A stretch of DNA of 40,478 nt from a virus (Duplodnaviria; Caudoviricetes): positions 1 through 40,478 of the IMG/VR virus record IMGVR_UViG_3300025305_000044; one strand, written 5' to 3'. The translations under genes and the position numbers were made by a program. Positions 8,555 to 34,939 of this stretch are shown piece after piece. The stretch's first letter is position 1, and each line of letters opens with the position of its first letter. The notes beneath the pieces are model-generated. The model saw only the letters and a program-made list of their open reading frames with translations, did no database searches and was not told the origin of the DNA.

Positions 8555-8561
8555 AGAAAAT

Positions 8562-8942: not shown

Positions 8943-8970
8943 AGACCTGAGCATGTCTTTAAACTGCTCA
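8943..8970 (+). ncRNA. Repeated H-type pseudoknot motif, copy 1
   Basis: AGAC-CTGAGCAT-GTCT-TTAAAC-TGCTCA. Confidence 0.65.
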
Positions 8971-8996
8971 ATTTTTATTATGTAAGGATGTGAATA

Positions 8997-10847: not shown

Positions 10848-10931
10848 GCCTCTGTGGTGGAACGGTAGACACGCTTGGTTTAAGCCCAAGTGCCAAAAGG
10901 CGTGAAGGTTCGATTCCTTCCAGAGGCACCA
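10848..10931 (+). tRNA. tRNA-Leu(TAA)
   Basis: GCCTCTG/CAGAGGC acceptor, CTTGG-TTTAAGC-CCAAG anticodon arm, long variable arm, GGTTCGATTCC T arm, encoded CCA. Confidence 0.95.
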
Positions 10932-13307: not shown

Positions 13308-13311
13308 GGAT

Positions 13312-13341
13312 TTGACAAAAGTTTTACGCTTGTGTTAAACT
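13312..13341 (+). promoter_or_regulatory. sigma70-type early promoter
   Basis: GGGAT-TTGACA-18-TAAACT. Confidence 0.75.
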
Positions 13342-13444
13342 AAGGTTGCGTTGAAAAAACCGATTCGCTTTTGCGGAGGTGTAGATATGTAATTATCGAG
13401 GATGTTCAATATCAAAGTATGTTTAGTACATAAAGGAGTAAATC

Positions 13445-13666
13445 GTGGGTATACAAGAAATAGTAAAAAGCATACAGGATAGTGTAAGCAACTTAGAGGA
13501 CGTACAGCTAAAGGTTGAAGATATAATGGCTACGGCAGAGGATGTAAGAGATAGAGCCGTAAGCACACTAGAAGCTCTCCAAGAGGATATAGAACTTCTC
13601 TATAGAATAGAAACAAATCTATATGAAGCAGAGAGTATAGAAGACGACTCAAATAATATAATTTAG
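13445..13666 (+). CDS. Acidic coiled-coil protein
   Basis: AAGGAG SD, GTG start. Confidence 0.65.
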   Translation: MGIQEIVKSIQDSVSNLEDVQLKVEDIMATAEDVRDRAVSTLEALQEDIELLYRIETNLYEAESIEDDSNNII

Positions 13667-13684: not shown

Positions 13685-14743
13685 ATGTCAGCATCGATTT
13701 TTGGTGATAGATTTCTAGGAAGGCGCACACCTGCATGGCATAGGATTGGACAAGTATTTGAAGAGCCTATGTCTATGAGTCAGGCTATTCGTAAAGCAGG
13801 TATTGATTTTCATATTGCAAAACATCCTGTAGTAGTTCAGATAGATAAAGGAGAGACTATAGACCTTGTACCTACTAATAATTTTGCAGTTGTGCGAGAA
13901 CCTGTAAAAGACGACGATGAATATAGAGTATTGTCTATAGTAGGAAAAGAGTGGACTCCTATTCAAGCTGTGGATTTGGGTAGGATGTTAGACCCTGTAA
14001 CAGAAAAGTATCCTGTGGAAACCATAGGTGCAATAGGTTATGGAGAGAAAATCTTCATGACCTTAGATGCAGGGGATAGTAAGATTTGTGGTGAAGACCA
14101 TAAACTATACTTCCTCGTTACTGACCATCGTGATGGTATGGGTGCATTGCAAATTGCTTTTACTCCTGTACGAGTTGTGTGTCAGAATACACTTACGGCG
14201 GGGTTGGCAAATGCTAAGATTTCAGTAAGGCTTACCCATACTAGGAGAATTGAATCGGATACAGAGTGGTACATAGGATTGTTTAATCAAATGAGTTCAG
14301 CAAAGGATGAAGCTATTGCTGTTATGAACACTCTTAATACAACTACTATAGAGGACACAGATGTGGAGAGAGTTTTGAAGTCTGCATATCCTGACGCTTC
14401 TCAGCCCAGACGATTATCTCTTTCAAAGGATATCACTGCTGATGATGTCCCTACTGGTGTGTGGATGAAACTTCTTGGTGACAAGAAAGAATTGCAAGAA
14501 GAATATGAGAAACGAGTAGAGAGAATAGAATTGATTCGTAATGGAGCAAGGGAACGTTATACTGCTTTCAACGATGAGTTTAGTAATCTTGCTCGTACTC
14601 CTTGGGCTATATGGCAAGCGATTGTAGAAACAGAAGACTATAGGAAGGGCCACGCTAATTCTGCTACCGCATTGTTTGGCTCTAGGGCAGATGCTAAGGC
14701 TAGGGCTTTTTCAACTGCTAGACAATTAGTAACTAATAGTTAG
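13685..14743 (+). CDS. DUF932/DUF945-family protein
   Basis: PAWHRIG, HRDG, TPVRVVCQNTL motifs. Confidence 0.85.
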   Translation: MSASIFGDRFLGRRTPAWHRIGQVFEEPMSMSQAIRKAGIDFHIAKHPVVVQIDKGETIDLVPTNNFAVVREPVKDDDEYRVLSIVGKEWTPIQAVDLGRMLDPVTEKYPVETIGAIGYGEKIFMTLDAGDSKICGEDHKLYFLVTDHRDGMGALQIAFTPVRVVCQNTLTAGLANAKISVRLTHTRRIESDTEWYIGLFNQMSSAKDEAIAVMNTLNTTTIEDTDVERVLKSAYPDASQPRRLSLSKDITADDVPTGVWMKLLGDKKELQEEYEKRVERIELIRNGARERYTAFNDEFSNLARTPWAIWQAIVETEDYRKGHANSATALFGSRADAKARAFSTARQLVTNS

Positions 14744-14770
14744 TATAATAGAAAGAGCAAGGTGAGGGTG

Positions 14771-14798
14771 CTGTCCTGAGCATGACAGAAAACTGCTC
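14771..14798 (+). ncRNA. Repeated H-type pseudoknot motif, copy 2
   Basis: CTGTC-CTGAGCAT-GACAG-AAAAC-TGCTC. Confidence 0.65.
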
Positions 14799-14830
14799 TA
14801 TTTTATAGACTATAAACGCTGCAGGAATAT

Positions 14831-15106
14831 ATGGATACTAAGGACGCTGAACAATTGATGTTACCTTTTTTCCCTCATGATCCGTACTTAGCAGTACAGT
14901 CATTATCTAAAGCGATGTATGATTATGCGGGAGTGCTGTTACCTAATTGGATATGGGAAACGATAGTACAACAATACTTCACGTTCCTACACCTTCAAGT
15001 ACTGCACATGAAACAAGAACATTTACGTGAGCAAATAATATCTGAAGACCCTTTTCACATGAATACTATACCCTATCTTATACCCGACCATCCTCTATCG
15101 AATTAG
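14831..15106 (+). CDS. Hypothetical protein
   Basis: 91 aa ORF, AGGA SD. Confidence 0.55.
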   Translation: MDTKDAEQLMLPFFPHDPYLAVQSLSKAMYDYAGVLLPNWIWETIVQQYFTFLHLQVLHMKQEHLREQIISEDPFHMNTIPYLIPDHPLSN

Positions 15107-15118
15107 AGCAGTGGGGAT

Positions 15119-15147
15119 TTGCCACAAACGTCGAAACATGCTAAACT
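15119..15147 (+). promoter_or_regulatory. sigma70-type early promoter
   Basis: GGGGAT-TTGCCA-17-TAAACT, extended -10 TG. Confidence 0.7.
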
Positions 15148-15194
15148 AATGAAGCGGTCGAAAAACGGCATTTTGTGGAGGTGTGAGATGTAAT

Positions 15195-15635
15195 TATATA
15201 TTCGTAATAAACCAGTATTGAGAGATAAGCTACTAGGCTAAGAACGTTATTAGAATAGTCGTAAAATCTAAACCTTGACGAAGGCAAGGATAAATGCTTA
15301 CTCTCTAATAGCTAATACGTGAAAGCATAGCCTCCCTGCATAATCGAATATTATTTAGGTGCAGGGATAGGTTAGGGGGATGTATAGCTTGTGGATTGTA
15401 TTATACCTATATCCATACTGATTTTACTACTGTTGTATCCAGTGTACCGTGCATACGTTGTATCACAAAGTACGAAGGACGGATAAATCTAGAACGCAGA
15501 ACTGTTAATGTCTTAGGCAATTCTAGGTTCACGTTTACTTGCGTACCGCTTGTTGACCGTCAATCCGTCTGTATCCAGAGAGCCAGTATGAACAGTCCCT
15601 GTGCGGTTGTCAACCACAGGCTATGCATTCCCTGC
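15195..15635 (+). ncRNA. Candidate large structured ncRNA of unknown family
   Basis: 19-bp long-range helix 15376-15394/15614-15632 with three G.U pairs, nested helices, no convincing ORF, downstream of a promoter. Confidence 0.6.
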
Positions 15636-15666
15636 TAATAAAATATAAAAGAGGAAACATCAACAC

Positions 15667-15921
15667 ATGGAAACTGAAGCAGTATTTATTGCACAGCCAA
15701 AGGGAACATGGACACACGACAACATTGTTATAGAGCATGATGGGTCTAGTGCCTACACAGTATATATTACATGGAAAGGTACTCAAGGGGGTTGGGAAGA
15801 GGCCAATACAACAGTCTGTAAAGTTCCACACCAGATGGCTATGATATCCTTATTATCCGACCTAACTGGTAAGCGTCCTTTATTTACTACTCTTGCTGGT
15901 GAATCTATTTTATACCATTAG
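15667..15921 (+). CDS. Hypothetical protein
   Basis: GAGG SD. Confidence 0.6.
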   Translation: METEAVFIAQPKGTWTHDNIVIEHDGSSAYTVYITWKGTQGGWEEANTTVCKVPHQMAMISLLSDLTGKRPLFTTLAGESILYH

Positions 15922-15937
15922 GAAAGAGGAAAGAGTA

Positions 15938-16126
15938 ATGGCTAGAAATGTAGAACATATCTGTGACATCAGGGATAAGTGGTGTCAAGAAGGAGCCAAT
16001 CCTTATAGACATCCAGATCATAATAGTCATAAGGGTGGATGTATTTGTCCACTAGAAGAGGACGATTTGACGAATGTCATAAAATCTGCTAAACTTGAAG
16101 CAAGTCGAAAAATAATTAGATTGTAA
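15938..16126 (+). CDS. Small Cys/His-rich protein
   Basis: GAGG SD, ATG 15938; 3' end overlaps next promoter. Confidence 0.5.
   Translation: MARNVEHICDIRDKWCQEGANPYRHPDHNSHKGGCICPLEEDDLTNVIKSAKLEASRKIIRL
16067..16095 (+). promoter_or_regulatory. sigma70-type early promoter
   Basis: TTGACG-17-TAAACT, then CAAGTCGAAAAA. Confidence 0.7.
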
Positions 16127-16138
16127 AGGAGATTAACT

Positions 16139-16639
16139 ATGCCTAACTGGTGTCAGAATGAAGTAACTGTAACAGCAGATACTAAAGGGACATTACAGAA
16201 TTTTATAAATTTTGTAAAAAGTTCGGATGTAGAGTTTTCTTTTCAGAGTATAATGCCCATGCCTTCTGAACTCACAGGTACTTGTTCTCCTGTGCAAATA
16301 TGTACAGTGGAAGAATATCATGATTGGATTAGGAAACACCAACCTACATATGATTTTGAAGGTAGGCCCATTACTAAACAGATGAGTGTTAGATTCAAGA
16401 AACAGTATGGGACAGATAATTGGTACGATTGGTGTAATAATAATTGGGGAACTAAGTGGGACACAGCTTCTGTCTATGTAGACAAATTTGCTGATACAAC
16501 AATACACTATAGTTTTGATACTGCTTGGTTGCCTCCTGTAGGAGTCTACTCAGCATTAGTAAAACTATTTCCTGATCTGCACTTTTCTTGGTTTTATAGA
16601 GAAGAGGGGATGGCAATTGCAGGATACTTACCTAATTGA
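16139..16639 (+). CDS. DUF1281/Api92-like (YubB ferredoxin-like fold) protein
   Basis: MPNWC, NWYDWC..NWGTKW, FDTAW.PP. Confidence 0.85.
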   Translation: MPNWCQNEVTVTADTKGTLQNFINFVKSSDVEFSFQSIMPMPSELTGTCSPVQICTVEEYHDWIRKHQPTYDFEGRPITKQMSVRFKKQYGTDNWYDWCNNNWGTKWDTASVYVDKFADTTIHYSFDTAWLPPVGVYSALVKLFPDLHFSWFYREEGMAIAGYLPN

Positions 16640-21957: not shown

Positions 21958-22107
21958 GACATGATAATTTTTTATCATGTCGAATAGGAACAAGGTCGGA
22001 AGCGGAAAGGATAGGAAAGGGAAAGGAAAAACAATCCCTATACTATAGGGCAGGGCAGATACCTGCAGTACTCTACAGAGTGTAGGGCAGAGTAGAGTTA
22101 TCATGTC
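21958..22107. repeat. Palindrome/polypurine intergenic block 1
   Basis: GACATGATAA-TTTT-TTATCATGTC, GGAA-rich tract, TTATCATGTC at 22098. Confidence 0.75.
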
Positions 22108-22157
22108 CCCATTTTTTTTATAGATTCTCTATAGAGTAGCTAGTGTTAGGCACAAAT

Positions 22158-22186
22158 TTGACAACAGTTGCGAACGGTGATAGTCT
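22158..22186 (+). promoter_or_regulatory. sigma70-type early promoter
   Basis: TTGACA-17-TAGTCT, TG. Confidence 0.7.
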
Positions 22187-22248
22187 GGTCATGTGCCAAG
22201 CGAGACGGCTCCGCTGAAACCGTACACTATAGTACAGGATGGTGACTA

Positions 22249-22479
22249 ATGGCTAATCAGCCCAAAAACCCAGCCGATAAGTATACAGTTGAGAATGGCG
22301 AAATTGTAATGCGCTTTCCGATACTGCCTACGCTCAGTAAGAAAGGGATTTCAATGCTTCTAGCTACTACTAGGGGTGCCGAAACCTTCACCTATGAAGG
22401 CATGGAGATAAAGGCCAATGTCAATCTCTATGTTCCTATTGAGGAATGGGAAGCTAAGGCCAAGAAATCCAAGAAATAG
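22249..22479 (+). CDS. Small beta-rich protein (LLATTxG family), paralogue of 23313-23513
   Basis: SKKGISMLLATTRG...NVNLYVP. Confidence 0.75.
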   Translation: MANQPKNPADKYTVENGEIVMRFPILPTLSKKGISMLLATTRGAETFTYEGMEIKANVNLYVPIEEWEAKAKKSKK

Positions 22480-22493
22480 GCTAGCTAGGAATC

Positions 22494-22525
22494 GGGCAGG
22501 TTTGGCACACCTGCCCTATTTCTTT
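22494..22525 (+). terminator. Intrinsic terminator ending rightward early transcription
   Basis: GGGCAGGT/ACCTGCCC then TATTTCTTT. Confidence 0.75.
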
Positions 22526-22536
22526 GCCCAAAATTA

Positions 22537-22666
22537 GACATGATAGCTTTTATATAGAGAGGGATATATTCTTATCATGTCTACCCTCCTCTCCCATAGA
22601 GGAAGGGAACAGGAAAGGAAGGAAGGGAATCAGGAATGGAAAGAGACTTGATAAGTTTATCAACTC
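22537..22666. repeat. Palindrome/polypurine intergenic block 2
   Basis: GACATGATAG...TTATCATGTC, GGAA tract, GACTTGATAAGTTTATCAACTC. Confidence 0.75.
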
Positions 22667-22685
22667 ACTTTTGTCAAGTGAGCGG

Positions 22686-22708
22686 TGGGCAGTTTTTCGA
22701 CCTGCCCA
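22686..22708 (-). terminator. Hairpin at end of leftward transcription
   Basis: TGGGCAG/CTGCCCA stem just 3' of ORF 22720-22989; no clear U-tract. Confidence 0.45.
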
Positions 22709-22719
22709 GGTCGCCAAAG

Positions 22720-22989
22720 CTACACCTCACTTTCTACAATTTCGACTGTAAGTAAGTCGCCATGATCGGATTCACAATACCAACCCAATTCCTCACGCAT
22801 AGCGGTAATAGAGAAACACGACAAACCCGAAATAAATTCTACCGCTTTGCGTACCGCATCCCAGTGACTATAGCGAATCCTATCAGAAGGGTATACAACG
22901 CTAGGAGAAGAATCATTCCACGTAATTTCCCGTACTTCGACTCGATACTTTCGATCACTAGGCACATAGGTAGGGGCGTAGGTAATCAT
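22720..22989 (-). CDS. Hypothetical early protein
   Basis: GGGAGG SD, own promoter. Confidence 0.7.
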   Translation of the reverse strand: MITYAPTYVPSDRKYRVEVREITWNDSSPSVVYPSDRIRYSHWDAVRKAVEFISGLSCFSITAMREELGWYCESDHGDLLTVEIVESEV

Positions 22990-23033
22990 TCGAGCCTCCC
23001 GATAGAGTGTTCAAGGTTTCCCTTGACTTCTCT

Positions 23034-23061
23034 ATAGTACCACATTTAGAGGTATTGTCAA
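23034..23061 (-). promoter_or_regulatory. sigma70-type early promoter (leftward)
   Basis: TTGACA-16-TACTAT with TG. Confidence 0.65.
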
Positions 23062-23070
23062 ATAAAACAG

Positions 23071-23174
23071 GACTTGATAATTACCATGTCTAAAAAAGAG
23101 GGGACACAAGGAAGGAACAGGGAATAGGGAATGGAAGGAACGGAAAGACTCTTATCAAATCTATTTATCAAATC
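23071..23174. repeat. Palindrome/polypurine intergenic block 3
   Basis: GACTTGATAATTACCATGTC, GGAA tract, TTATCAAATC x2. Confidence 0.7.
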
Positions 23175-23193
23175 GAAAAATGGCAAAACTAAA

Positions 23194-23221
23194 GAGCAGT
23201 TTAATGACTTGCTCAGGTCAT
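23194..23221 (-). ncRNA. Repeated H-type pseudoknot motif, copy 3
   Basis: Minus strand ATGAC-CTGAGCAA-GTCAT-TAAAC-TGCTC. Confidence 0.65.
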
Positions 23222-23312
23222 AGAATCGGGGGCGGCATATGCTAACTCCTATGCTTTGAATTTGGTGGGGTAGCTTTCGTAGTGTACCAAGCTACTTGCT
23301 ACCCCCTGTGCC

Positions 23313-23513
23313 TTAACCTTTCGCTACATGAGGAACGTAGACGTTCAAATTGACTTGAACGTTCTTGTCTTCATGAATGAATGACTCGGTTCCCGAGGTT
23401 GTGGCAAGCAACACAGACTTGCCGGATTTCGCGGGCCGAGGCGCAATCTTCTTGACGATAACCACAAAGCCATCTTCAATGTACATCGCTTCTCTGAGTG
23501 CCTTGTTAACCAT
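23313..23513 (-). CDS. Small beta-rich protein (LLATTxG family), paralogue of 22249-22479
   Basis: AKSGKSVLLATTSG...NLNVYVP; AAGGAG SD. Confidence 0.75.
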   Translation of the reverse strand: MVNKALREAMYIEDGFVVIVKKIAPRPAKSGKSVLLATTSGTESFIHEDKNVQVNLNVYVPHVAKG

Positions 23514-23573
23514 AATTCACACGCTCCTTATTCTAAATATTTTGTCGGGAGTGGTACTTCTCCCAACATCAAT

Positions 23574-23602
23574 ATAGTAGCACAGTCGTACCCCCTTGTC
23601 AA
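23574..23602 (-). promoter_or_regulatory. sigma70-type early promoter (leftward)
   Basis: TTGACA-17-TACTAT with TG. Confidence 0.75.
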
Positions 23603-23634
23603 ATTTATGACTATAGTGAAAACCAAAAAAACGG

Positions 23635-23757
23635 GAGTTGATAATTATTATGTCTAATATATAGAGAGAGCAGGAAAGGGAAAGGAAGGTGGAAGGAAAG
23701 GAACGTGGAAGGAAAGGAACGTGGAAGGAACGAGAGTTGATAATTCTATCAAGTCTA
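23635..23757. repeat. Palindrome/polypurine intergenic block 4
   Basis: GAGTTGATAATTATTATGTCTA, tandem GTGGAAGGAAAGGAAC, GAGTTGATAATTCTATCAAGTCTA. Confidence 0.75.
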
Positions 23758-23775
23758 GTTTTTTGTCAATCCCTT

Positions 23776-23803
23776 TGAGCAGTTTATACACTTGCTCAGG
23801 TGT
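23776..23803 (-). ncRNA. Repeated H-type pseudoknot motif, copy 4
   Basis: Minus strand ACAC-CTGAGCAA-GTGT-ATAAAC-TGCTCA. Confidence 0.65.
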
Positions 23804-23810
23804 TTTATGA

Positions 23811-24155
23811 CTAGCCTAGGTTTAACCTCGCTTGGTAAATGGTTTCGTACTGGGTGGCATCAGGCCAAATTTTGCTGTTAGCGGATGAGAAGTTTACCAC
23901 ATAATCCCAACACTTGGCACAAATTCCATTTCCTAATCCCTCAGCATATGAGCCACAAGTTTCGCAATTTCCGTTTGAATCCGAGATTTTATCTTTGGGT
24001 AGATTCCTGACTGATGCTTCAAATTCCGCCCTAATGATATCGTCCTGAGTCTTATCGACATTTCGATCTACTTGGTCAGCGCTATCGTTAGCTATTGCAC
24101 TTTTTCCTTCGACGACGTTAGCTCGCAGGAGGGTGATGTTATCCCAAAATCCCAT
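23811..24155 (-). CDS. Zinc-binding early protein (N-terminal FWDNI)
   Basis: Likely start MGFWDNI at 24155; CETC...CAKC. Confidence 0.65.
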   Translation of the reverse strand: MGFWDNITLLRANVVEGKSAIANDSADQVDRNVDKTQDDIIRAEFEASVRNLPKDKISDSNGNCETCGSYAEGLGNGICAKCWDYVVNFSSANSKIWPDATQYETIYQARLNLG

Positions 24156-24219
24156 TTTGTTCACTCTCAGCCTTTCGGCTGTCCTTTGTAATGTTAGAGG
24201 TGTCATCCCCTACACAAGG

Positions 24220-24247
24220 AGTATAGCAGAATGACATGTAGTGTCAA
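24220..24247 (-). promoter_or_regulatory. sigma70-type early promoter (leftward)
   Basis: TTGACA-16-TATACT with TG. Confidence 0.65.
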
Positions 24248-24268
24248 TAGCCTCTATGAAGATTTTGG

Positions 24269-24290
24269 GAGTTGATAATTATTATGTCTA
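24269..24290. repeat. Fifth copy of block boundary site
   Basis: GAGTTGATAATTATTATGTCTA identical to 23635-23656. Confidence 0.75.
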
Positions 24291-24494
24291 AATATATATA
24301 AATAAGTATATAAAATATTCTAACCGTTTCTGACTAGGTTATTTCATTTCAGTCTGTTAGTATACTCCAAACTATTAATCCTATTGATCCAATAAAGATT
24401 CCTGTTAATAATATTTCTACCATTTTATTTCACTCCAGCCCAGCTTTTAATACTATTTTTGTTATTTCTTTTACTAAATTTTCAGCTTTCATTA

Positions 24495-24683
24495 CTATTT
24501 CAAATCTCCACCGTAACGTATCAAAAAATATAGTTGTTTTAACCAATTTGGTTTTGCTGTATTTTTCGGGTTGCATATTGAATGATAAGCTATAAAATCT
24601 TCTGTTCCATTTGAATTAAAAACTCGTTTTAAAGTTATCGCCCAATTGTTTAATATTTCTTCATTACATTTATTACATTTCAT
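24495..24683 (-). CDS. Small zinc-binding protein
   Basis: MKCNKC...YHSIC; GGAG SD before 24683. Confidence 0.55.
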   Translation of the reverse strand: MKCNKCNEEILNNWAITLKRVFNSNGTEDFIAYHSICNPKNTAKPNWLKQLYFLIRYGGDLK

Positions 24684-24963
24684 TTTCAATGCTCCACATA
24701 CTATCAAGTTTTTCTGTATCAATTAGAATTAGCCTCTGTTTTAAATATCCTAAATGTTTACAATTACATTGCGCTACTTGTCCACATACACATGTATAAC
24801 AATCTTCTGTTTCTTGTACCTCTATAATTTTGTTATATTTTGTTTGTAAGATATTTAGTTGTTTTAATAGTTTAGTGTTTTCATTTTGTAAACTTTCTAT
24901 TTCATTAATTAAATAATATTTATATTGTTTTTTATCTGCCACATGGGTTTTCTGTTTCTTCAT
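24673..24963 (-). CDS. Hypothetical coiled-coil/Cys protein
   Basis: Overlapping minus-strand operon. Confidence 0.5.
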   Translation of the reverse strand: MKKQKTHVADKKQYKYYLINEIESLQNENTKLLKQLNILQTKYNKIIEVQETEDCYTCVCGQVAQCNCKHLGYLKQRLILIDTEKLDSMWSIENEM

Positions 24964-25264
24964 TGTCGTTTTCCTTTCCTTCTAGTTTTAATATAGATTG
25001 TTTAAATATAGATATCAAGCATTTTGTTGGTATTATCTGTACCATTACTTCTAGCCAGTTTACATCATCCAGATTCTTTTTTTCTGGCGTAGTTTTTCCC
25101 CAAAATATTTTAAGTAAGCCACTAAGTTTTTCAGTATATTCTTCTACTGTTTTACATGAATGTAGCATGTCATGTACTAAACGATCTATATTTTTGTTAG
25201 TTTCTATACAGTATACAGCGCTGGCTGTAGCGTCTCTATCCTGTTTAGATATATCAGTTGTCAT
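24932..25264 (-). CDS. Hypothetical protein
   Basis: AAAGGA SD; TPE...LDDVNWLEV. Confidence 0.65.
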   Translation of the reverse strand: MTTDISKQDRDATASAVYCIETNKNIDRLVHDMLHSCKTVEEYTEKLSGLLKIFWGKTTPEKKNLDDVNWLEVMVQIIPTKCLISIFKQSILKLEGKENDNEETENPCGR

Positions 25265-25286
25265 CAGGGTATCCTTTCTTTATACC

Positions 25287-26687
25287 GTTTCAAATCAACC
25301 TCTCTAACTGAGCCTGTCTGATCACACAGATTAGTATATTTCTAGATGTAGTTTACTTATTTAGCTGCTGCATCCTACATCTTTGTGTTGCTCTTACTTA
25401 AACCTTCTAATAGATTTTACTAACCTGTTTAACTCTTCTGATTCCTGCAACTTCTGTAGCCTGTACTAAGCTTTTACGAATCTTTATAACTAGTTCTATA
25501 GTCTAGATTTTACGTAGTTTACTTATTACTTTAACTTATATATATAGATAGTTAATCTCATTTCGTTTCAAGTCCAGCCCTCTCAGCACCACCACCATGC
25601 TTACTGGACATGGTGTGTCTAGTCTCTTAGCTACTTGTCTAGCTGCTTAGTCTACACTCTCCACACCTCTTACTTATATACTCTAGTAAAATTCTGTCTA
25701 TGTACATACTTATTCTCTGATCCCTGTGGTCTCTACATCTTATCCTAGTCTGTCTCTAGTCTCTATAACTAGTTATCTAGCCTAGACTTTACTTAACTTA
25801 TCTATTACCTTACCTTATATACATAGCTAGTTAATCCTATTTCATTTCAAGTCAGTCACTCTAGCTGACATCTCTTGTACACTCTGGTCACCATGCTCCT
25901 AGACTCTCTAGCTATCTAGCTTGCTAGGCTCTAGACTCTCTACCTCCTGTGCCTAGACTCTCTAGTGACCTCTGGCTATCTGTCTAGCTCCCACCGATCT
26001 CTGTAGTCTCTGTAGCTCGTCCTAGCCACTCTCTAGGCTATCTGTAGATAGCTCTCAGGCTCCTGTACCCTCCTGTAGCTAGTCCTACGCTGGGCTGTTC
26101 TTATCTTTACTAACTCTATTTCGGTTTCAAGTTGACGCTCTAGACGACCATGCCTGACCACCTGACAGCTAGCCTCTGTGTCCACCTAGCTAGACAGTCA
26201 GCCTCAGTCTCTACACACTGAGACCCTGATGTCTGTGACCGTGACCCTGCTGTAGATGTACACGCCTACACCCACATCTCCTGTGTCCACTAGTCACTAG
26301 CCTACTTACTTGTAGCTGACATAGCTTAATCTCTACAGTGTACACCAAGCTCCTAGCTCTTGTCAACTTGGCCTAGACTCGTCTTATCTTAGCTATTTCG
26401 GTTTCACTGCCCTGCCTCTCAGCAGCCTCACAGACACCTCTACACACCACACTCTGCACTCAAGGCTCTACACTCTGTCTACATGCTCTACACACTGCCT
26501 ACACACCCTACACAGCACACCCACAGCAGCCTAGCTACCTGCCTGACACCTCTACCTGACAGGCTAGTCAGCCCTCACTCTGCCAGCAGCACCTCTAGGC
26601 TAGGCTCTCTAGCTGGCCCTGACCCTCCACAGGCTCCCTGTCCACAACACCCTCTTGAAGGGGGTGGGGGTGAACTGGTTTCAAGTC
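25287..26687. repeat. Degenerate tandem array, five units of about 278 bp
   Basis: (G/A)TTTCA anchor at 25287, 25565, 25844, 26124, 26401, 26678; units 1 and 2 visibly alignable. Confidence 0.8.
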
Positions 26688-27665: not shown

Positions 27666-27727
27666 AGTAGTATAATATAGTAGTGCTGTTGATTCAGCAT
27701 ATAGCTGATCTATGTTTAGGAGATACT

Positions 27728-30700
27728 ATGTCGCGACTTACAGACATTTATAATAGTCTTATGGATGATCCAGATATCGTTCCACCAGCTAAAATATCCA
27801 AAGATGAATATGTTTTGAATATGGCTCGACAACGTATTCAACAGAGTGAAAATAATGCTGAAGCGTTGGAGATGGGTTTTGTTAAGACTAATGGTCATTT
27901 TTCTAATGGATATTCCAACAATGGTGGCTCTCAGTCTGCTGTAAATAAGCTTGCCGCTTTTGTGAACCTGCCGGAGGCTTCGCCTGATACAGATATATTA
28001 TTGGAAAAGGCGAAAGAACCACAACATTTCCACGAGGATGCTTTACAATATCTTCTAGACAGGAACTATTCAAACGCAGTTATAGAGCAACTTCGTAAAG
28101 ATCATCCACCTATGGCGACTTCTTCGGGTAAACCTATTCTGGAAATAAGTCTTAAGGATATAGCAAGTATTATCCCAGATAGGATGGCAGTAAGTGACGA
28201 TGCACGAATAGCTGGAGAGGAGCGACCTACGGCTAAATCGCATCCAGCCATGTTTAAACCTGCGGCTAAGCCTAAGACCGCCACATCTGATGTTCCAGAG
28301 AAAGTTACATCTAAGAAAAAAGATGGGGTAAAAAGTATATTCCCAATAAAATGGGAAAGTGGTAATAAGTATAATACTGATTTGAAGCTTGGAAGCCTTG
28401 TACGAAATGAACAAGGTGACTTATTTAAAGTAAATCGTCTCAATGGTTATAATGTAGAACTTGATGGCATTAATGAGAAGGGCCAATCCAGAGGATCAAC
28501 GAGTAATATTACTATTAATGTAGACCCTTCTGTCCGTAAACAAGGAGACCCTTTCTATTATCCTCATAAAATAGGAAATATAGATAATCATAATGATTTA
28601 TTAGATGTAGGAACTCAAGCTAGGGTGGATACGGACACATCCCCTACAGAGCAGGAGTCTACTCAACCTGAAGTTACGCCTGATAAAGGGGAAGACACCG
28701 ATGAAGGAATTGAGCCTCTAGATGCAGATAGTACACTTCCTCAAATCCAGACTTTGGAGGAGATTGCGGAACTTAATACCACTCAATTAGAGGCTGCACT
28801 GGTAGCTAAAGGGTTTGATAGAAATCAAATCGGTAAAATAGCAAAGATGAAAGGGCTTCAAACGGATGGCTTGCTTGACCAAGAGAAATATAGGCAATAT
28901 TTACAGGAAACACTTGCAAAAACTGTTAAAACAGCACAAGAAGAAGCAGAAGAAGCAGTGGTAACTGAGGCTAAACCTGAATCTGCTCTTGATGCTAGAT
29001 TAAAAGAGATTGACCCTGCCTATAATAAAGCAACGGTTATAACCAGATTGAGCAGCTTGTATGGAGGTGGGTATAGACTTTCCGAGTTAGAGGGTATGTC
29101 TGATGATGAGTTAGTAGCTAGGGTTAAGATAAGTTCGGAAGATATTTCTCATAGCAGAAATGACATTGAACAGGTGGTCAGCCGACAAAAAAGTGGAGAC
29201 AGGCGGCTTAGGGCTGCTGGATATACTCAAGAAAATATAACTGAAATGTCAGATAATATGAAAAATACGCTGCTTAATCACCTTGATGAAAACCCAACTT
29301 GGAAAAGAGGCGACATTGATGCTGCCATTAAGAGAGAGGGGGTCGCTGCGGCTGCAGAGGGGGCCGCTGCGGATGCAGAGAGGGCCGCTGCGGCTGAATC
29401 ATCTGCAGGGGAAAAGACACCAGCTACTATTGAAGGCCCACTTGAGCCAGAAGACCCAAAGAAACAACTGTCAGACAAGGCTAAAGAAGAGCTTTCTAGA
29501 ACGATTTCTGATACTGGTTTAGAAGCTCTTTTAGGTAAACTTGGAAAAGGTAGGGAGCAACTTTTTGACCCTATGGGAACGCCCATGCTTGAAAGTAAGA
29601 AGAATGACAAAGGTAAGGTCATAAAAGGTACGTGGGTAGATAGGGATGGAAATGAATATAGTAAGATAAAAGGCAAATACATTGACTCGCAAGGAAACGA
29701 ACCGAAAGATGGTGAATATGTAGGCACTGTGGCGCAAGCTCAGGACTATATAACGCATCTTAAAGAGTCAGGTCATCCACATCATGAACATTTTAGTGAA
29801 ATAAGAAATATGGATATCCTTGATAAGGATGGTAAACCTACTGGAGAAAAAGTCGGGCAACATATAGACATAATGGAACCAGAGCTTGGTACTGTAATAA
29901 ATAAACCACTTGTTGTAGAAACTCCTGTGGTTGAAACTCCTGTTGTAGAAACTCCTGAAGCAGATGCTGATGCAAAAAAGGCAGAAGAGTCAGGCGACAC
30001 ACCAGAACCAGAAGTGTTAGAAGCAGCAGAAAATATCTCTCCAGAGGTAGAGGCCATAGCTAAAACGCTGTTGAAAAGTGGTTTTGCAAAAAGAGTGGCT
30101 TGTGAGCGTGGGCTGACAGATAAAGATGGTAATCCTACAGAAATGGGTAAAGCCTTCTTTGAACAAATTGGGCCAATGGTTAACGAAGCAGTTGATCATT
30201 TTGAAAAACATAAAGACACGATTGCTACAAAGTTTAATAGGCGTCGTGGAATGAACTTCAGAGATAAAGAGGGTAATATTGTAGGTATAGGTAACAGTGG
30301 TACGTTCCTTAATCATCTAATAGATGACATGAATAAGGTTGCTGTAGCGAAAGGTCTTCCTACATTAGAAAAAACGCATAATGATCGTACTGGAGAAGCT
30401 CTGACAGATAATGGAGTTCCTGTAGAGCCTAATCAAGCACCCGATCTTTCTGTAGTAAATGGAGAGATGGTTAGGAATAGACTTCTTACTAGTCGAATTG
30501 GTAATGATTTTTCGAGCGACCACGGAGAGTTTATTGCAGGACTTGGTGGTATACAACAAATTGAACAAAGCATACTTGAAAATAAAGGAATGAATCCTGA
30601 TACAGCAAAGAAAATTACCGAAGAAAAACTTAAGGAGGTTAAGAGTGGTATAGAATCTGATGAGATTAAGGTTGCTGACGCTGGCGAAAAAATTCATAAC

Positions 30701-33700
30701 TCAATAAATGAAACTGTAGCAACTGATTATCCAGACATTGCTGAAACTCCTCCAGATTATGGGAAACAGCTACCTCTGTTTGAAGATATGGGTTTTGAGC
30801 CTATGTCTACACCTGAACCTACTTCTGCGGCTGACGCTGTGGCAAAGAAAGGAGTAAAAGCTAGGCAACGAAGAGCCAATTTGGATGAGGAAATCCATAT
30901 TCCTAGTAAAGTTAGTGATCAAATAAAACCGCTTTTAGCTCATCTAGGACATGACGTAGATGCAATGACATCAAGTGATGTTATGAACACATTTAGAGAA
31001 GTCTTGACAGACCCAGATAAATTTGGTGAACTGGAGATAGCTCTTAAGGAGAATGAGGAGGTTAGGAATCAGTTCGTTCAGGCACATGTTGCAATGGAGC
31101 AAGCGGAAGAAGAAGACCCTAGACTAGCTCATGCAGGACTACCGGGTTTTGGTGCCGAGGTCGAAGATTGGGGAAAGATACCAGATAGAGCAGCAGAAGC
31201 TACACAGAAAATACACGAGAGATATAGAAGGAAAAATCTTTCACCACGAAAACGTCAGGTAGAAGACTTAAAGAACGTTATGCATGGAGACTTCCATGAA
31301 CATCTAGATAATCCTGATGATATGTCAGATAAAGAAATAAAGGAGATGTGGAATAAAGAGGTACGTGATCCGAAAGCTCGGACTGCTTCCTCAGCATCTG
31401 CAGGAGCAAAGCCTACAGAAAAAGATAAACCGAATCGTACTGCGGCTTTGGAACGATTAGCTCGATTACAGAATCCTGATTTGATTGGTGATGATGACGA
31501 GGTTCTTGATCAGGATGCAATGACCAGAGCCACTACAAAACTTGAGAGGCATTATGATCCGTCCGTTGGCTTTACTCTTAAAGATATTACAGATGCTGTA
31601 AAAGCTCAAACTAATTTAGTAGCTAACCAAGAAGCTCAACAAAAGCAAGAAAAACAGAATAGGGCTAGAGGAGTCGATCAAATAAGGGCTGTCGCTGAGT
31701 TCGAGGACAACTTTCCAGACCCAGATAAGTGGGCTAAGGAACATGATGGTGAAAAAATGAGTCCTGAAATGGCTAAAGAACATTTTAGAGAGTTAATAGA
31801 CTTTCAACATCGAAAAGAAAATTTCCAGCATTTCGACCCGAAATCCGGAGACCCAGAAAATTTTAAAGCTTTAAGAGAGCGAGTACATGAGTATGCTAAT
31901 CTGAATCCTTCGGCTGCTAGAGAGATTGCCGAGGAAATTAAGTCAGCACAACGTAATGGTATTGACTTAGGGTCAGATGAATTTCTAGCTCATGCTAAAG
32001 AATTAAAGGAGACTGTGGAACGTGACGAAAGAACCGCTTTTGCTAAGGCTAATCATAAAAATGAAAAACTTGCCCATGCCTTAGAGAATGGTAATTTCTC
32101 TAGAGGTTATGATAAAGATGGTAATGATGGGCATCGTGGGCTAGATCATAATGGTGATCCTGAACATGATACCTCAGAGATAAAGCATGAAGATGCTAAA
32201 GCTCCATTAGTTCATGCTGTGGATGAAAATGGGTATCCTGATGATAAATTACAACAACTAGTTAATGAAATACATGACGCTGAATTAGCTATACCTAAAG
32301 GTGATAGAGAACATCATGAAGCGGAAAGTAGTTTACGTGCGGCCCATGAGGCAGCTAAAGTGGATGAACATAAAAAAACTACAGATGCTCATACTGCAAA
32401 TACTGCTGGACGAGATCGGAACTATGATGAGAATGACGCTAAATTTGATGCTGATATAGAGAATTCACATCAACGTCAGCGTGATGCGAATTATGCACGA
32501 GTAAGTGGTGAAGGGGACAGACAGAAAGTATTACTAGATAATCATAAGAAGCTTATAAATGAAGCTGTTGATGCTCATGAGCGTCAGTTGGCGCAACACG
32601 ATGGCAAGATAAAAAAGAAACAAGATGAATATAATGCTTATCATCAAGATATTGATAAAGCAAATAAACAGCATAAAAAAAATGTTGGTGACGCTTCTGC
32701 AGATAGGATGAATGCTATTTATGAGGCAGAACAAAAAGCTAAAAAAGCGAGGTCTACAGCTAACGATCAACTTAATTCGATACTAGCCGAGCAGATAAAA
32801 CAACATAATGAAGAAGTTGAACAGCATAACCAGCAAGGTATGGACATAGTTGTTAATGCAGACGCTAGTTTCGCTGATTTGGCAAAACAGCAGACAGGTC
32901 AACTTGCAAACTTAAGGAATAAGCTATCAAAAACTTCGGAACAATTCTATCAGAAGCAGCAAGATGATTCGAATGTTGCTGCAGCTAGGGGGGCTAGTCC
33001 GGAGTATTTAGGTAATTTGACGCAGCAACATAAACAAGAAGCTGCTGAATTTGATCGGGGTTCGCAGCAACAGGTAGCAGATTTACATCAGAGTCATCAA
33101 ACTGAAATAGAAAAACATGCTAACAATCTTGGTCAAGAAGGTAAGGAGTGGACTCAAGCAGGAACTGATCTTCTTCTTAACCAGGCTGAAGAGAGACAGA
33201 AGTTAACAGATGATGGTCATGCTAGGATGGAACGTATAGATGCTGCCGTAGCACATACGGACGCTACAGCACGAAAAACTGAGAACGATGCTATTAATCA
33301 GTCTAGAGACATTCGTAACAAATCATTGCAAGAAGTTGCGGATGCGGCTGGACTTGAAGCTTTTATAGAAGACGATGGTGACGCTACAAGATTCGCAGAT
33401 CAAATGAGACAAGAGCAAAGTTCTCATGAGACAGACTCAGCGATTATTCGTGAGCAAATTCAAACCGACCATGGAGATTATGTTGAAAGTAAACGGCGTG
33501 GTTTTAAGAGTGAACAAGGAAAAATGTTTGCCCAAGCGACTAGGGCTGGAGATGCATCCAATGAAGAGTTTGAAAAGGAACGTGAAGGTCATATAGTACG
33601 TAGACAACGAGAAAATCTGTATGTTACTAATGACTTTGAAATACTCAGAGATAAGATAGATAACTTACATGGTAAGCTTAAACGAGACGCTAAAAAGAAT

Positions 33701-34939
33701 TTTAATGTTCAGAAGAAACGACTTGGTACAGATAAAAAAGTCTCAGATCAAGCCGCTTTAGAGAGAAAAGAGAGGGCACATGCCACATTAGACGAATATT
33801 TAAAGGATGATCCAGAGAAATTAGCGGCTATTAAAAAGAATCCTCAGCTAGGAGAGCATCAGGATAAAGTTCAGCAAGCCCATGAAGAGGCTGGCTCAGG
33901 GCCAACTGGCGAAAAAGATGCTAAGGGTGAAGATAAGAAGCCAGAAAAAACTCGTATGGTTAAAGACCCCAAAACAGAGGAGATGAAAAAGCAGTATTGG
34001 ATTCCAGGTAGAGGTAAAGGTTGGGTAGACGAAGATACCTATAGGGCCTCTCATGGTCAGAATGCTGCTGCAGCTAAAAATAATAAACTGGTTATTTATC
34101 CTCAAGGCCACTTTGATGCAGGTCATGGACAAGAAGGTGATGAGGATTATAGGCCAATGTCACCACCAATGGCTGGACATGGTGCAAACATGTTCTCCAT
34201 CCACACTCCTGATCATCCTGACGCAGGATTACATGATGATGAATTAGATCATGAAGGTGTTATGGGCAGCCATTTAGGTAATCAGCCCGGTATAACTGAT
34301 CACGAAAACTTTACAGCAAATGGCGCACCATTTGAGGTAGACCTTGATTCTGTGGGTCTACGGGGTATGGCTGAAGCTGCTGGTAAAGGTAAGGGACAGG
34401 CCCGTGATCCTGAAAGTAAAAGAGAAAAAATTGGAAGACAGTTTGGTGGAGTAGAAGCCCAACGAAGGGCAGGAACTGGAGAATTTGCTGCATATGGACA
34501 AGCAGCCAAAGCAGTTGGAAGAAAATTTACGGGTGCTTTGGATTATGTAAATAGTTTACGTGGAGAACAAGGACAACGACAATCTGCTGTTCAACAGTTT
34601 GCATCCCGAATGGGAAGTGGTGATGGAGGTGACATAGGACAACATGTCGCAAATGCACTAAGAGGAGCTAGACAAAGAGGTAGAAAGGCACTGGGTGGAG
34701 TTTATTCCGGGGGATTCGCGCCTAAAAATGAACGCCAGGCAAAAGCAAAAGTAGAGCTATGGCGTAGACTACCAGGCTTTCTTAGAGAGATATATAGCCT
34801 AAGAAATCAAGAACATGCAAGACAACTTGATCATATAAGGGATATAGAAGATAGAAACGAACGAAAAAGTTCTATGGATCAATGGAGGGAATGGAGCAAA
34901 GGAATACATAGCGAGATAGAATCTAGACCAAAAATGTAG
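27728..34939 (+). CDS. Giant hydrophilic protein, 2403 aa (possible internal head/ejection protein)
   Basis: AGGAG SD before ATG 27728; charged, His-rich, long coiled coil; no recognised catalytic motif. Confidence 0.75.
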   Translation: MSRLTDIYNSLMDDPDIVPPAKISKDEYVLNMARQRIQQSENNAEALEMGFVKTNGHFSNGYSNNGGSQSAVNKLAAFVNLPEASPDTDILLEKAKEPQHFHEDALQYLLDRNYSNAVIEQLRKDHPPMATSSGKPILEISLKDIASIIPDRMAVSDDARIAGEERPTAKSHPAMFKPAAKPKTATSDVPEKVTSKKKDGVKSIFPIKWESGNKYNTDLKLGSLVRNEQGDLFKVNRLNGYNVELDGINEKGQSRGSTSNITINVDPSVRKQGDPFYYPHKIGNIDNHNDLLDVGTQARVDTDTSPTEQESTQPEVTPDKGEDTDEGIEPLDADSTLPQIQTLEEIAELNTTQLEAALVAKGFDRNQIGKIAKMKGLQTDGLLDQEKYRQYLQETLAKTVKTAQEEAEEAVVTEAKPESALDARLKEIDPAYNKATVITRLSSLYGGGYRLSELEGMSDDELVARVKISSEDISHSRNDIEQVVSRQKSGDRRLRAAGYTQENITEMSDNMKNTLLNHLDENPTWKRGDIDAAIKREGVAAAAEGAAADAERAAAAESSAGEKTPATIEGPLEPEDPKKQLSDKAKEELSRTISDTGLEALLGKLGKGREQLFDPMGTPMLESKKNDKGKVIKGTWVDRDGNEYSKIKGKYIDSQGNEPKDGEYVGTVAQAQDYITHLKESGHPHHEHFSEIRNMDILDKDGKPTGEKVGQHIDIMEPELGTVINKPLVVETPVVETPVVETPEADADAKKAEESGDTPEPEVLEAAENISPEVEAIAKTLLKSGFAKRVACERGLTDKDGNPTEMGKAFFEQIGPMVNEAVDHFEKHKDTIATKFNRRRGMNFRDKEGNIVGIGNSGTFLNHLIDDMNKVAVAKGLPTLEKTHNDRTGEALTDNGVPVEPNQAPDLSVVNGEMVRNRLLTSRIGNDFSSDHGEFIAGLGGIQQIEQSILENKGMNPDTAKKITEEKLKEVKSGIESDEIKVADAGEKIHNSINETVATDYPDIAETPPDYGKQLPLFEDMGFEPMSTPEPTSAADAVAKKGVKARQRRANLDEEIHIPSKVSDQIKPLLAHLGHDVDAMTSSDVMNTFREVLTDPDKFGELEIALKENEEVRNQFVQAHVAMEQAEEEDPRLAHAGLPGFGAEVEDWGKIPDRAAEATQKIHERYRRKNLSPRKRQVEDLKNVMHGDFHEHLDNPDDMSDKEIKEMWNKEVRDPKARTASSASAGAKPTEKDKPNRTAALERLARLQNPDLIGDDDEVLDQDAMTRATTKLERHYDPSVGFTLKDITDAVKAQTNLVANQEAQQKQEKQNRARGVDQIRAVAEFEDNFPDPDKWAKEHDGEKMSPEMAKEHFRELIDFQHRKENFQHFDPKSGDPENFKALRERVHEYANLNPSAAREIAEEIKSAQRNGIDLGSDEFLAHAKELKETVERDERTAFAKANHKNEKLAHALENGNFSRGYDKDGNDGHRGLDHNGDPEHDTSEIKHEDAKAPLVHAVDENGYPDDKLQQLVNEIHDAELAIPKGDREHHEAESSLRAAHEAAKVDEHKKTTDAHTANTAGRDRNYDENDAKFDADIENSHQRQRDANYARVSGEGDRQKVLLDNHKKLINEAVDAHERQLAQHDGKIKKKQDEYNAYHQDIDKANKQHKKNVGDASADRMNAIYEAEQKAKKARSTANDQLNSILAEQIKQHNEEVEQHNQQGMDIVVNADASFADLAKQQTGQLANLRNKLSKTSEQFYQKQQDDSNVAAARGASPEYLGNLTQQHKQEAAEFDRGSQQQVADLHQSHQTEIEKHANNLGQEGKEWTQAGTDLLLNQAEERQKLTDDGHARMERIDAAVAHTDATARKTENDAINQSRDIRNKSLQEVADAAGLEAFIEDDGDATRFADQMRQEQSSHETDSAIIREQIQTDHGDYVESKRRGFKSEQGKMFAQATRAGDASNEEFEKEREGHIVRRQRENLYVTNDFEILRDKIDNLHGKLKRDAKKNFNVQKKRLGTDKKVSDQAALERKERAHATLDEYLKDDPEKLAAIKKNPQLGEHQDKVQQAHEEAGSGPTGEKDAKGEDKKPEKTRMVKDPKTEEMKKQYWIPGRGKGWVDEDTYRASHGQNAAAAKNNKLVIYPQGHFDAGHGQEGDEDYRPMSPPMAGHGANMFSIHTPDHPDAGLHDDELDHEGVMGSHLGNQPGITDHENFTANGAPFEVDLDSVGLRGMAEAAGKGKGQARDPESKREKIGRQFGGVEAQRRAGTGEFAAYGQAAKAVGRKFTGALDYVNSLRGEQGQRQSAVQQFASRMGSGDGGDIGQHVANALRGARQRGRKALGGVYSGGFAPKNERQAKAKVELWRRLPGFLREIYSLRNQEHARQLDHIRDIEDRNERKSSMDQWREWSKGIHSEIESRPKM

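Follow-up and report, generated by a model that had tools for sequence, protein, structure and literature searches.

The window, by which we mean the whole stretch of DNA that was analysed, is a virus record of 40,478 bases, the completeness of which is estimated at about half. It comes from a tailed phage that encodes an SU10-type capsid protein and a prohead protease. Two small genes of this phage, coding for proteins of 91 and 84 amino acids (p91 and p84), are separated by a non-coding stretch (15148-15632) located behind a promoter. This stretch can be described as composed of a leader, a 5' domain that contains helices P1 to P4, a hairpin P5, and a 3' domain that contains helices P6 to P10 (Table 1). 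All the helices that a preliminary description of this DNA had listed are present where it had placed them. One metatranscriptome, from the same study, contained next to none of the sequence words of window positions 14700-16200.

The promoter scores 9/12 with TG. It had been marked earlier, at 15119-15147, as an early promoter, and it proves to be a member of a sigma-70-like family that is repeated within the same phage. Nine copies are found in the window, the others at 8559, 13309, 16064, 17452, 18543, 20260, 20513 and 21105. The family motif consists of ATTTGACA or ATTTGCCA, a 17-nt spacer and a TG-extended TAnACT, followed by a leader with a GTCGAAAAA-like run. Each of the eight other promoters lies 30-110 nt upstream of a gene led by a Shine-Dalgarno sequence (SD). 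From its sigma-70-like form, the promoter at 15116-15147 would be expected to fire, and to fire early. The near-identical promoters share a transcribed leader (GAAGCnAGTCGAAAAA-like), each heading a small gene, and the layout of the family resembles the mobile early cassettes of T4-type phages.

In the leader of the element, the SD GGAGGTG (15177-83) is followed by an ATG (15188-90) and, directly after it, by a TAA (15191-93). The leaders behind promoters 13309 and 15116 share this SD+ATG+TAA word. The pattern of SD, ATG and stop occurs twice in the window (13375 and 15177) against a simulated mean of 0.06, with none of 300 simulations having two; it is absent from the leaders of three relatives (L024, L016 and L015). 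As a start-stop mini-ORF, with the SD GGnGGTG located 3-9 nt before the ATG and TAA or TAG following (13375-13392 and 15177-15193 in the window), it recurs in promoter-proximal leaders of other relatives, at 1927 in L041, 2322 and 3538 in L045, 2483 in L047 and 2072 in L039, where the start is GTG. A terminator scan found no terminator-like site after P6 in the window, so the transcript probably continues into p84, which is compatible with a leader role.

Table 1 Features of the element and its flanks in the window; helices are given by the positions of their two arms.
Feature	Positions	Strand	Description
p91 gene, upstream	14831-15106	+	left neighbour, kept in group A relatives
Promoter	15116-15147	+	GATTTGCCA -35 region, 17-nt spacer, TG-extended TAAACT -10
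Predicted transcript leader	15148-15219	+	conserved GAAGCGGTCGAAAAA run of the family, strong SD, ATG-TAA
5' domain	15220-15326	+	P1-P4, covariation in relatives
P1	15220-24 and 15226-30 with 15296-15305	+	GAGAGATAAGC (15220-30) / GCTTACTCTC; 10-bp helix with conserved bulged A15225
P2	15232-35/56-59 and 15238-41/50-53	+	hairpin with 2x2 internal loop, inside P1
P3	15273-84	+	hairpin CCTT-GACG-AAGG, inside P1
P4	15311-13/24-26	+	hairpin, 10-nt loop AAnnnnTGAA in 12 of 12 sequences
P5 hairpin	15333-15367	+	TCCCTGCA (15333-40) / TGCAGGGA (15360-67); length varies among relatives
3' domain	15376-15632	+	closed by the 19-bp helix P6
P6	15376-15394/15614-15632	+	GGGGATGTATAGCTTGTGG / CCACAGGCTATGCATTCCC; 19 bp, three G.U, no mismatch
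P7	15414-20/15584-90	+	CATACTG/CAGTATG
P8	15449-56/15460-66	+	GTGCATAC/GTATCAC
P9	15478-84/15563-69	+	GACGGAT/ATCCGTC
P10	15489-94/15531-36	+	CTAGAA/TTCTAG; compensatory changes
Conserved blocks in 3' domain	15413-18; 15595-15605	+	CCATAC; GTCCCTGTGCG
UGUAUC copy 1	15434-15449	+	TGTATCCAGTGTACCG
UGUAUC copy 2	15459-15466	+	TGTATCAC, 3' strand of P8
UGUAUC copy 3	15570-15585	+	TGTATCCAGAGAGCCA
p84 gene, downstream	15667-15921	+	adjoins the p91 homologue in L005, without the RNA there

Several other features are found in the window. A hairpin repeat of 25-28 nt (GAGCA...TGCTC, 11-nt loop) is found in both orientations, at 8944-8971, at 14772-14799 just upstream of the p91 gene, and at 22687-22711, 23194-23220 and 23777-23821; it is a candidate terminator or regulatory site. 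The region 22000-26500 is gene-poor, with a reversed GC skew and several repeat families. The 25-nt GGGAGTTGATAATTATTATGTCTAA occurs three times, at a spacing of about 564-634 nt, short tandem units of the GGAAAGGAA type are found at 23679-23730, and a 147-nt direct repeat is located at 25437 and 25716. Additional RNAs, an origin or a regulatory array may lie in this region. The ORF at 27683-34939, of 2418 amino acids, has no Pfam or PHROG match.

Relatives were gathered by a metagenome scan with the neighbouring DUF932 protein, which gave 56 loci, and the element was located in those loci by nhmmer and two covariance models of the 5' domain. All relatives were reached through this one anchor protein in one collection, and the sequences are few and related. 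Covariance model R2 matched 12 times, in 11 of 48 sources; many of those without a match are short fragments. There are nine distinct full-length forms, all from related marine metagenome phages, and they can be divided into two groups. In group A (the window, L024 with its duplicate L023, L016, L015 and L028), the element lies 3' of a p91 homologue. In group B (L041 with L042, L044 and L080; L039 with L040; L045; L047 with L048), it lies upstream of the DUF932 gene. Two further loci have the 5' domain alone. In L043 it is immediately followed by an SD-led gene; in L018 it is followed by a short ORF and by another, differing folded stretch. This latter stretch (L018 3943-4079), which is ORF-free and located 3' of the 5'-domain copy, has a perfect 14-bp closing helix (AGAATAGTAGTGTA / TACACTACTATTCT); near position 4200 of the same locus there is a T-arm-like GTTCGAATC, where ARAGORN calls no tRNA. 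The relatives' elements start behind a TTGACA-type promoter in all copies except L043. In L030, L032, L033 and L035, in which the anchor protein has 67% identity and the same interval is covered, the element was unmatched.

The surroundings of the element are variable. Homologues of p91, with 40-54% identity by tblastn, are found in L024, L016, L015, L028 and L018. Downstream of the element lie p84 in the window, a 79-aa ORF in L024, an Api92-like gene in L016 and a 64-aa ORF in L015; in group B there is a tRNA-Leu in L041 and other ORFs in L039, L045 and L047. According to ARAGORN, a tRNA is adjacent only in L041 and its duplicates, and in none of the eight other full-length members. The tRNA-Leu(UAA) is common to the phage lineage and its position varies (10848-10931 in the window, 2294-2379 in L041, 7553-7639 in L043); in the window it is 4.3 kb upstream of the element. 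None of the neighbouring genes co-occurs strictly with the RNA.

No match to the element was found by blastn in 50,697 phage records, and no cultured phage exceeded 27% identity in tblastn with the DUF932 neighbour. Among IMG/VR records, the locus was found in the same phage only and in one 70% relative, L005. The 5' domain occurs once in each of three of the four viral records and is absent from the fourth, that of L005, in which the homologues of p91 and p84 abut and the element is absent. Scanning viral contigs with a pattern of the 5' domain returned only three records, all of the same phage. A pattern of the 3' domain matched 13 viral and 21 genome stretches; blastn shows homology for only four viral stretches (three from the same phage, and L080, the duplicate of L041), and the remainder, including all 21 genome matches, are chance matches.

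Across these related marine phages, the predicted helices are kept by compensatory change. For the 5' domain, a plain MAFFT alignment of five sequences (A8) has 96.7% of its cells paired, compared with 27-45% in slid controls. Seven of its pairs have changed on both sides, including six of the ten in P1, and none of 500 shuffles scored as high. In A11, an alignment of 12 sequences whose model fitting leans toward structure and with which the unfitted A8 agrees, 92.8% of the cells are paired (26-42% in slid controls), and 12 of 22 pairs have changed on both sides, in 31 cells. None of 500 shuffles of A11 was as high on any of the five measures; because the sequences are few and related, shuffle controls overstate significance here.

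The 5' domain has about 80% nucleotide identity, and its unpaired bases are invariant where the p91 protein is 40-54% identical. Inside P1, the preliminary description had paired CCTTG with CAAGG; the relatives favour the hairpin CCTT-GACG-AAGG (P3) instead. P2 is missing in L041, L039 and L043, and P3 is missing in L018, so that either can be dispensed with and the constant core consists of P1, one inner hairpin and P4. The stem of P4 has 3 bp in group A and 5-6 bp, of differing sequence, in L041, L047, L018 and L043. The loop of P2 has a self-complementary 6-mer, AACGTT in the window and TACGTA in L016 and L015; in L024 it is only ACGT. A candidate pseudoknot, in which loop positions 3-6 of P4 would pair with the 4 nt that follow the inner hairpin, has seven complementary versions when compared by eye; in the fixed columns of A11 it is 75% paired, with 29 of 500 shuffles as high. 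In L028, the 5' domain is present as a tandem double copy.

The stem of P5 differs in sequence and yet pairs in several relatives (TCCCTCAC/GTGGGGGA in L024, GCCTC/GAGGC in L028, TCCC/GGGA in L041 and TTCC/GGAA in L045), and it is missing in L015. P6, which closes the 3' domain, is present in all nine full-length forms, with 159 Watson-Crick and 31 G.U predicted pairs. Its arms have at least four unrelated sequences (the window and L024, L016 and L015, L028, and group B). Since MAFFT (A5, A6, A7 and A13) misaligns the arms of this closing helix, P6 was counted from its outer ends by a script. The 13 outer pairs in the nine members make 117 cells, of which 89 are Watson-Crick, 20 are G.U, 2 are A.C and 6 are other. 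Between the window and L024, both sides differ at 8 of these 13 pairs with the pairing kept.

Several helices inside P6 also covary. For five group A sequences, RNAalifold predicts 44 pairs inside P6, 19 of which, including P10, have changes on both sides with pairing kept; for four group B sequences it gives 60 pairs, of which 7 have such changes. Read from the alignment rows, P7 is CATACTG/CAGTATG in the window and CATACTA/TAGTGTG in L024, while P9 is GGACGGAT/ATCCGTC in the window and GGGGGGAT/ATCCCTCC in L024. Local duplications rearrange the interior of the 3' domain between the groups, and therefore no single consensus is offered.

The strand from which the RNA is read can be deduced from the same data. 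The preliminary description had taken the G.U pairs of P6 as a sign of selection at the RNA level, and this argument extends to the relatives, where 20 G.U stand against 2 A.C. In 9 of 9 members, the fold is also more stable on the + strand than on the - strand, for the whole element as well as for P6. Taken together, the excess of G.U and the strand stability fix the sense of the RNA as +. Folding of the + strand has a z-score of -2.16, none of 100 shuffles being as good, and that of the - strand has a z-score of -2.15, with 2 of 100 shuffles as good. The folding energy by itself is weak evidence, and the case for more structure than expected by chance rests on the comparative data.

The element has no match among known RNA families. 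In Rfam 15, the whole window gave only the tRNA at 10848 at the gathering score, 15000-15800 gave no match at E up to 10, and at E up to 1 ten related loci had no match within their elements. The preliminary description had recognised no signature of a tmRNA, RNase P RNA, SRP RNA or intron, and this was borne out; more widely, the element matched no Rfam 15 family, including riboswitches, ROOL and GOLLD. A tRNA-like or tmRNA-like domain was considered and rejected, as ARAGORN finds none in the element or its homologues. As far as general paper searches reached, the element is undescribed in print; the check at the level of sequence was that against Rfam.

The longest open frame of the stretch (15312-15638) has 107/108 codons, 80 of them led by a TTG, and has neither an SD nor an ATG start. 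The earlier statement that the stretch carries no SD-led ORF holds for this frame; it has to be amended for the leader, in which a strong SD does lead an ATG that is stopped directly. No homologue of the frame was found among 5.8 billion proteins, and in viral contigs the frame is confined to three records, all from the same phage. Open frames on the + strand of the eight other full-length members reach a maximum of 34-62 codons, and ORF maps of L016, L024 and L015 have nothing conserved. Variable columns in the best-conserved block are distributed 11/10/11 over the three codon positions, so there is no codon periodicity. Of the outcomes that the preliminary description had named as counting against a novel RNA, an Rfam hit was not found, the homologues keep the helices while the reading frame is broken, and folding is better than in shuffles, only modestly so.

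The 3' domain contains a repeated word, UGUAUC. A 16-nt form of the motif occurs twice in the window, where 0.18 are expected. On the + strand of the nine 3' domains there are 27 exact copies of UGUAUC, 1-6 in each against 0.04-0.16 expected, the expectation being computed from the rest of each source. L016 and L015 each have one exact copy and two copies with one mismatch. The number of copies shifts through local duplications (L028 and L041). Some copies are located in a 7-nt hairpin loop, CTG-TTGTATC-CAG (window, L041 and L045), and others in a helix strand or a junction. Copies of the long motif are 136, 119 and 115 nt apart in the window, L024 and L016, respectively. A mimic of a CRISPR array was also considered and rejected: the motifs match none of the CRISPR-repeat models of Rfam, and their copies are short and lie at irregular distances.

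That the element is a functional structured RNA is, in our judgement, very probable. The evidence supports the core of the preliminary description, namely a multi-domain structured RNA that belongs to no Rfam family, is read from the + strand and lies behind a phage promoter of the sigma-70 type. Since the stretch is non-coding and has a two-domain fold behind a promoter, a discrete RNA of about 480 nt is predicted, which would be transcribed from its own promoter. In L041, an RNase P cut at the 5' end of the following tRNA would free the RNA. The downstream neighbours vary, and include a tRNA, which makes a discrete RNA gene more likely than a gene-specific leader. The RNA would act in trans, as a multi-site scaffold or decoy that shows its UGUAUC copies to a putative partner; the binding of this partner, and any effect on the host, are presumed steps. 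This reading is suggested because UGUAUC is enriched, has a single orientation and changes in copy number. Counting against it, L016 and L015 have only one exact copy each, and the setting of the motif is not uniform (loop or strand). A trans-acting scaffold or decoy with UGUAUC sites is therefore to be regarded as possible but somewhat doubtful. The best explanation overall, which we hold tentatively, is a promoter-driven two-domain RNA acting as the predicted scaffold or decoy.

The element could instead be a self-assembling architectural RNA of the ROOL/GOLLD kind, in which loop-loop contacts between copies would give an RNA-only particle. The RNA is large, ornate and encoded by a phage, and no conserved protein partner lies nearby; a tRNA-Leu is directly 3' of it in L041, and the same tRNA is 4.3 kb upstream in the window. 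Moreover, the 6-mer of the P2 loop stays self-complementary in three of four close relatives though its sequence changes. However, this loop is reduced to ACGT in L024 and P2 is lost from L041, L039 and L043, the element is smaller, with about 415 nt from P1 to P6, and no Rfam model matches it, the window having been searched at E up to 10 and the relatives at E up to 1. We consider this alternative rather unlikely.

A similarly low probability is given to a cis-acting leader, the fold of which would protect the message, hold an RNase III or RNase E site, or make the polymerase resistant to termination. The put RNAs of phage HK022 reportedly render RNA polymerase resistant to termination. The element begins about 70 nt behind the promoter, the next gene is not separated from it by a terminator-like site, the same SD+ATG+stop leader precedes an ordinary gene at 13309-13445, and the 19-bp P6 would be long enough for an RNase III substrate. 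In L043 and L018 the 5' domain occurs by itself, with an SD-led gene directly after it in the former and a short ORF after it in the latter. In contrast, nearly every lineage has its own downstream unit, which in L041 is a tRNA, and the other eight family promoters of the window have no such fold behind them. The invariance of unpaired bases in the 5' domain, despite 40-54% identity in p91, likewise exceeds the needs of a stabilising hairpin.

A more specific version of the decoy, which we regard as improbable, is a new class of takeover RNA, modular, early and built of two domains, whose UGUAUC array would titrate an RNA-binding protein of the host or a sequence-specific nuclease of its defence. 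If true, it would be an RNA-only factor of counter-defence or host shutoff, resized by phages through duplication of sites. Far less probable is an element acting at the DNA level, as a replication origin or a protein-binding array, with TGTATC iterons and with inverted repeats that form DNA hairpins. Transcription-linked origins exist in other phages, one short word is directly repeated here in one orientation, and long inverted repeats are present; but double-stranded DNA would not select for 20 G.U against 2 A.C on the + strand, and the 136, 119 and 115 nt between long motif copies are not a helical repeat. The + strand also folds better in 9 of 9 members. A fold of the single-stranded + DNA would be compatible with these data taken alone. 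A decayed or unconventional protein gene, either the open frame 15312-15638 or one once begun at ATG 15188, is scarcely credible: the 107/108-codon frame exists in the window and the leader has a strong SD and ATG, as in the gene-bearing cassettes, but the ATG is stopped directly by TAA, and the frame lacks an SD, an ATG start and a homologue beyond the same phage, is broken in the relatives and has no codon periodicity.

The predicted scaffold or decoy can be compared with several known systems. CsrB and RsmZ are protein-sponge RNAs that display copies of the word GGA. Like them, the element is a structured scaffold with several copies of one word, the number of which varies by local duplication; it differs in that the word is UGUAUC, the RNA is phage-encoded, Rfam is unmatched and the binding is only putative. 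Phage T4 has stable small RNAs that lie beside its tRNA genes, are co-transcribed with the tRNA cluster and are freed by tRNA processing. Both these and the packaging RNA of phi29 are phage-encoded non-coding RNAs made from early-type promoters, as is predicted for the element. Adjacency to a tRNA, and release by tRNA processing, would apply to the form in L041. In sequence, model, size and architecture, the element differs from both the T4 small RNAs and the phi29 packaging RNA, and it has no link to packaging genes.

In kind, the closest systems are the ROOL and GOLLD RNAs. According to the available part of a recent report, these RNAs come from phages and prophages, where tRNA islands are often close by, and they form nanocages via kissing loops and A-minor contacts (10.1101/2024.12.08.627333). 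Like them, as far as this part of the report describes them, the element has several hundred nucleotides and many covarying helices, is phage-encoded, and has no known protein partner (10.1101/2024.12.08.627333). In L041 and its duplicates, it lies beside a tRNA gene. Unlike them, it is shorter (about 415 nt), it leaves their Rfam models unmatched, and self-assembly is only hypothetical for it. It further differs in its architecture, with two domains that can be separated and a single long helix closing the second, and in its repeated UGUAUC words, and it is found so far in one lineage of uncultivated marine phages. The element is a new family by sequence and by model, and it belongs in kind to the large phage-encoded structured RNAs of no known function. 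Large covarying RNAs without a known job are rare, and each so far has led to new biology or a new RNA architecture. Because its promoter is of the ordinary sigma-70 type, this RNA lends itself to production in vitro or in a laboratory strain, which makes its fold, oligomer state and partners directly testable.

The genomic setting of the element resembles that of the promoter-early stem-loop (PeSL) cassettes of T4-type phages, in so far as the available part of the original account describes them (Arbiol et al. 2010, PMC2839356). As in that account, a strong sigma-70-like promoter cassette is repeated among small, non-essential genes (nine copies in the window), and what lies between cassettes is replaced, lost or duplicated among close relatives. 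Such exchange is seen in L005, which lacks the element and has p91 and p84 side by side, and in the other neighbours found in L016, L015, L024 and L028; it would be explained by recombination between cassettes. A repeated hairpin family is likewise present in the window, with a putative role as terminator; after the element, the terminator scan finds no terminator. Unlike the PeSL cassettes, as that part of the account presents them, one cassette here holds a conserved RNA fold of 400 nt and not an ORF. The small-gene early cassettes of marine phages can thus hold an RNA in place of a protein.
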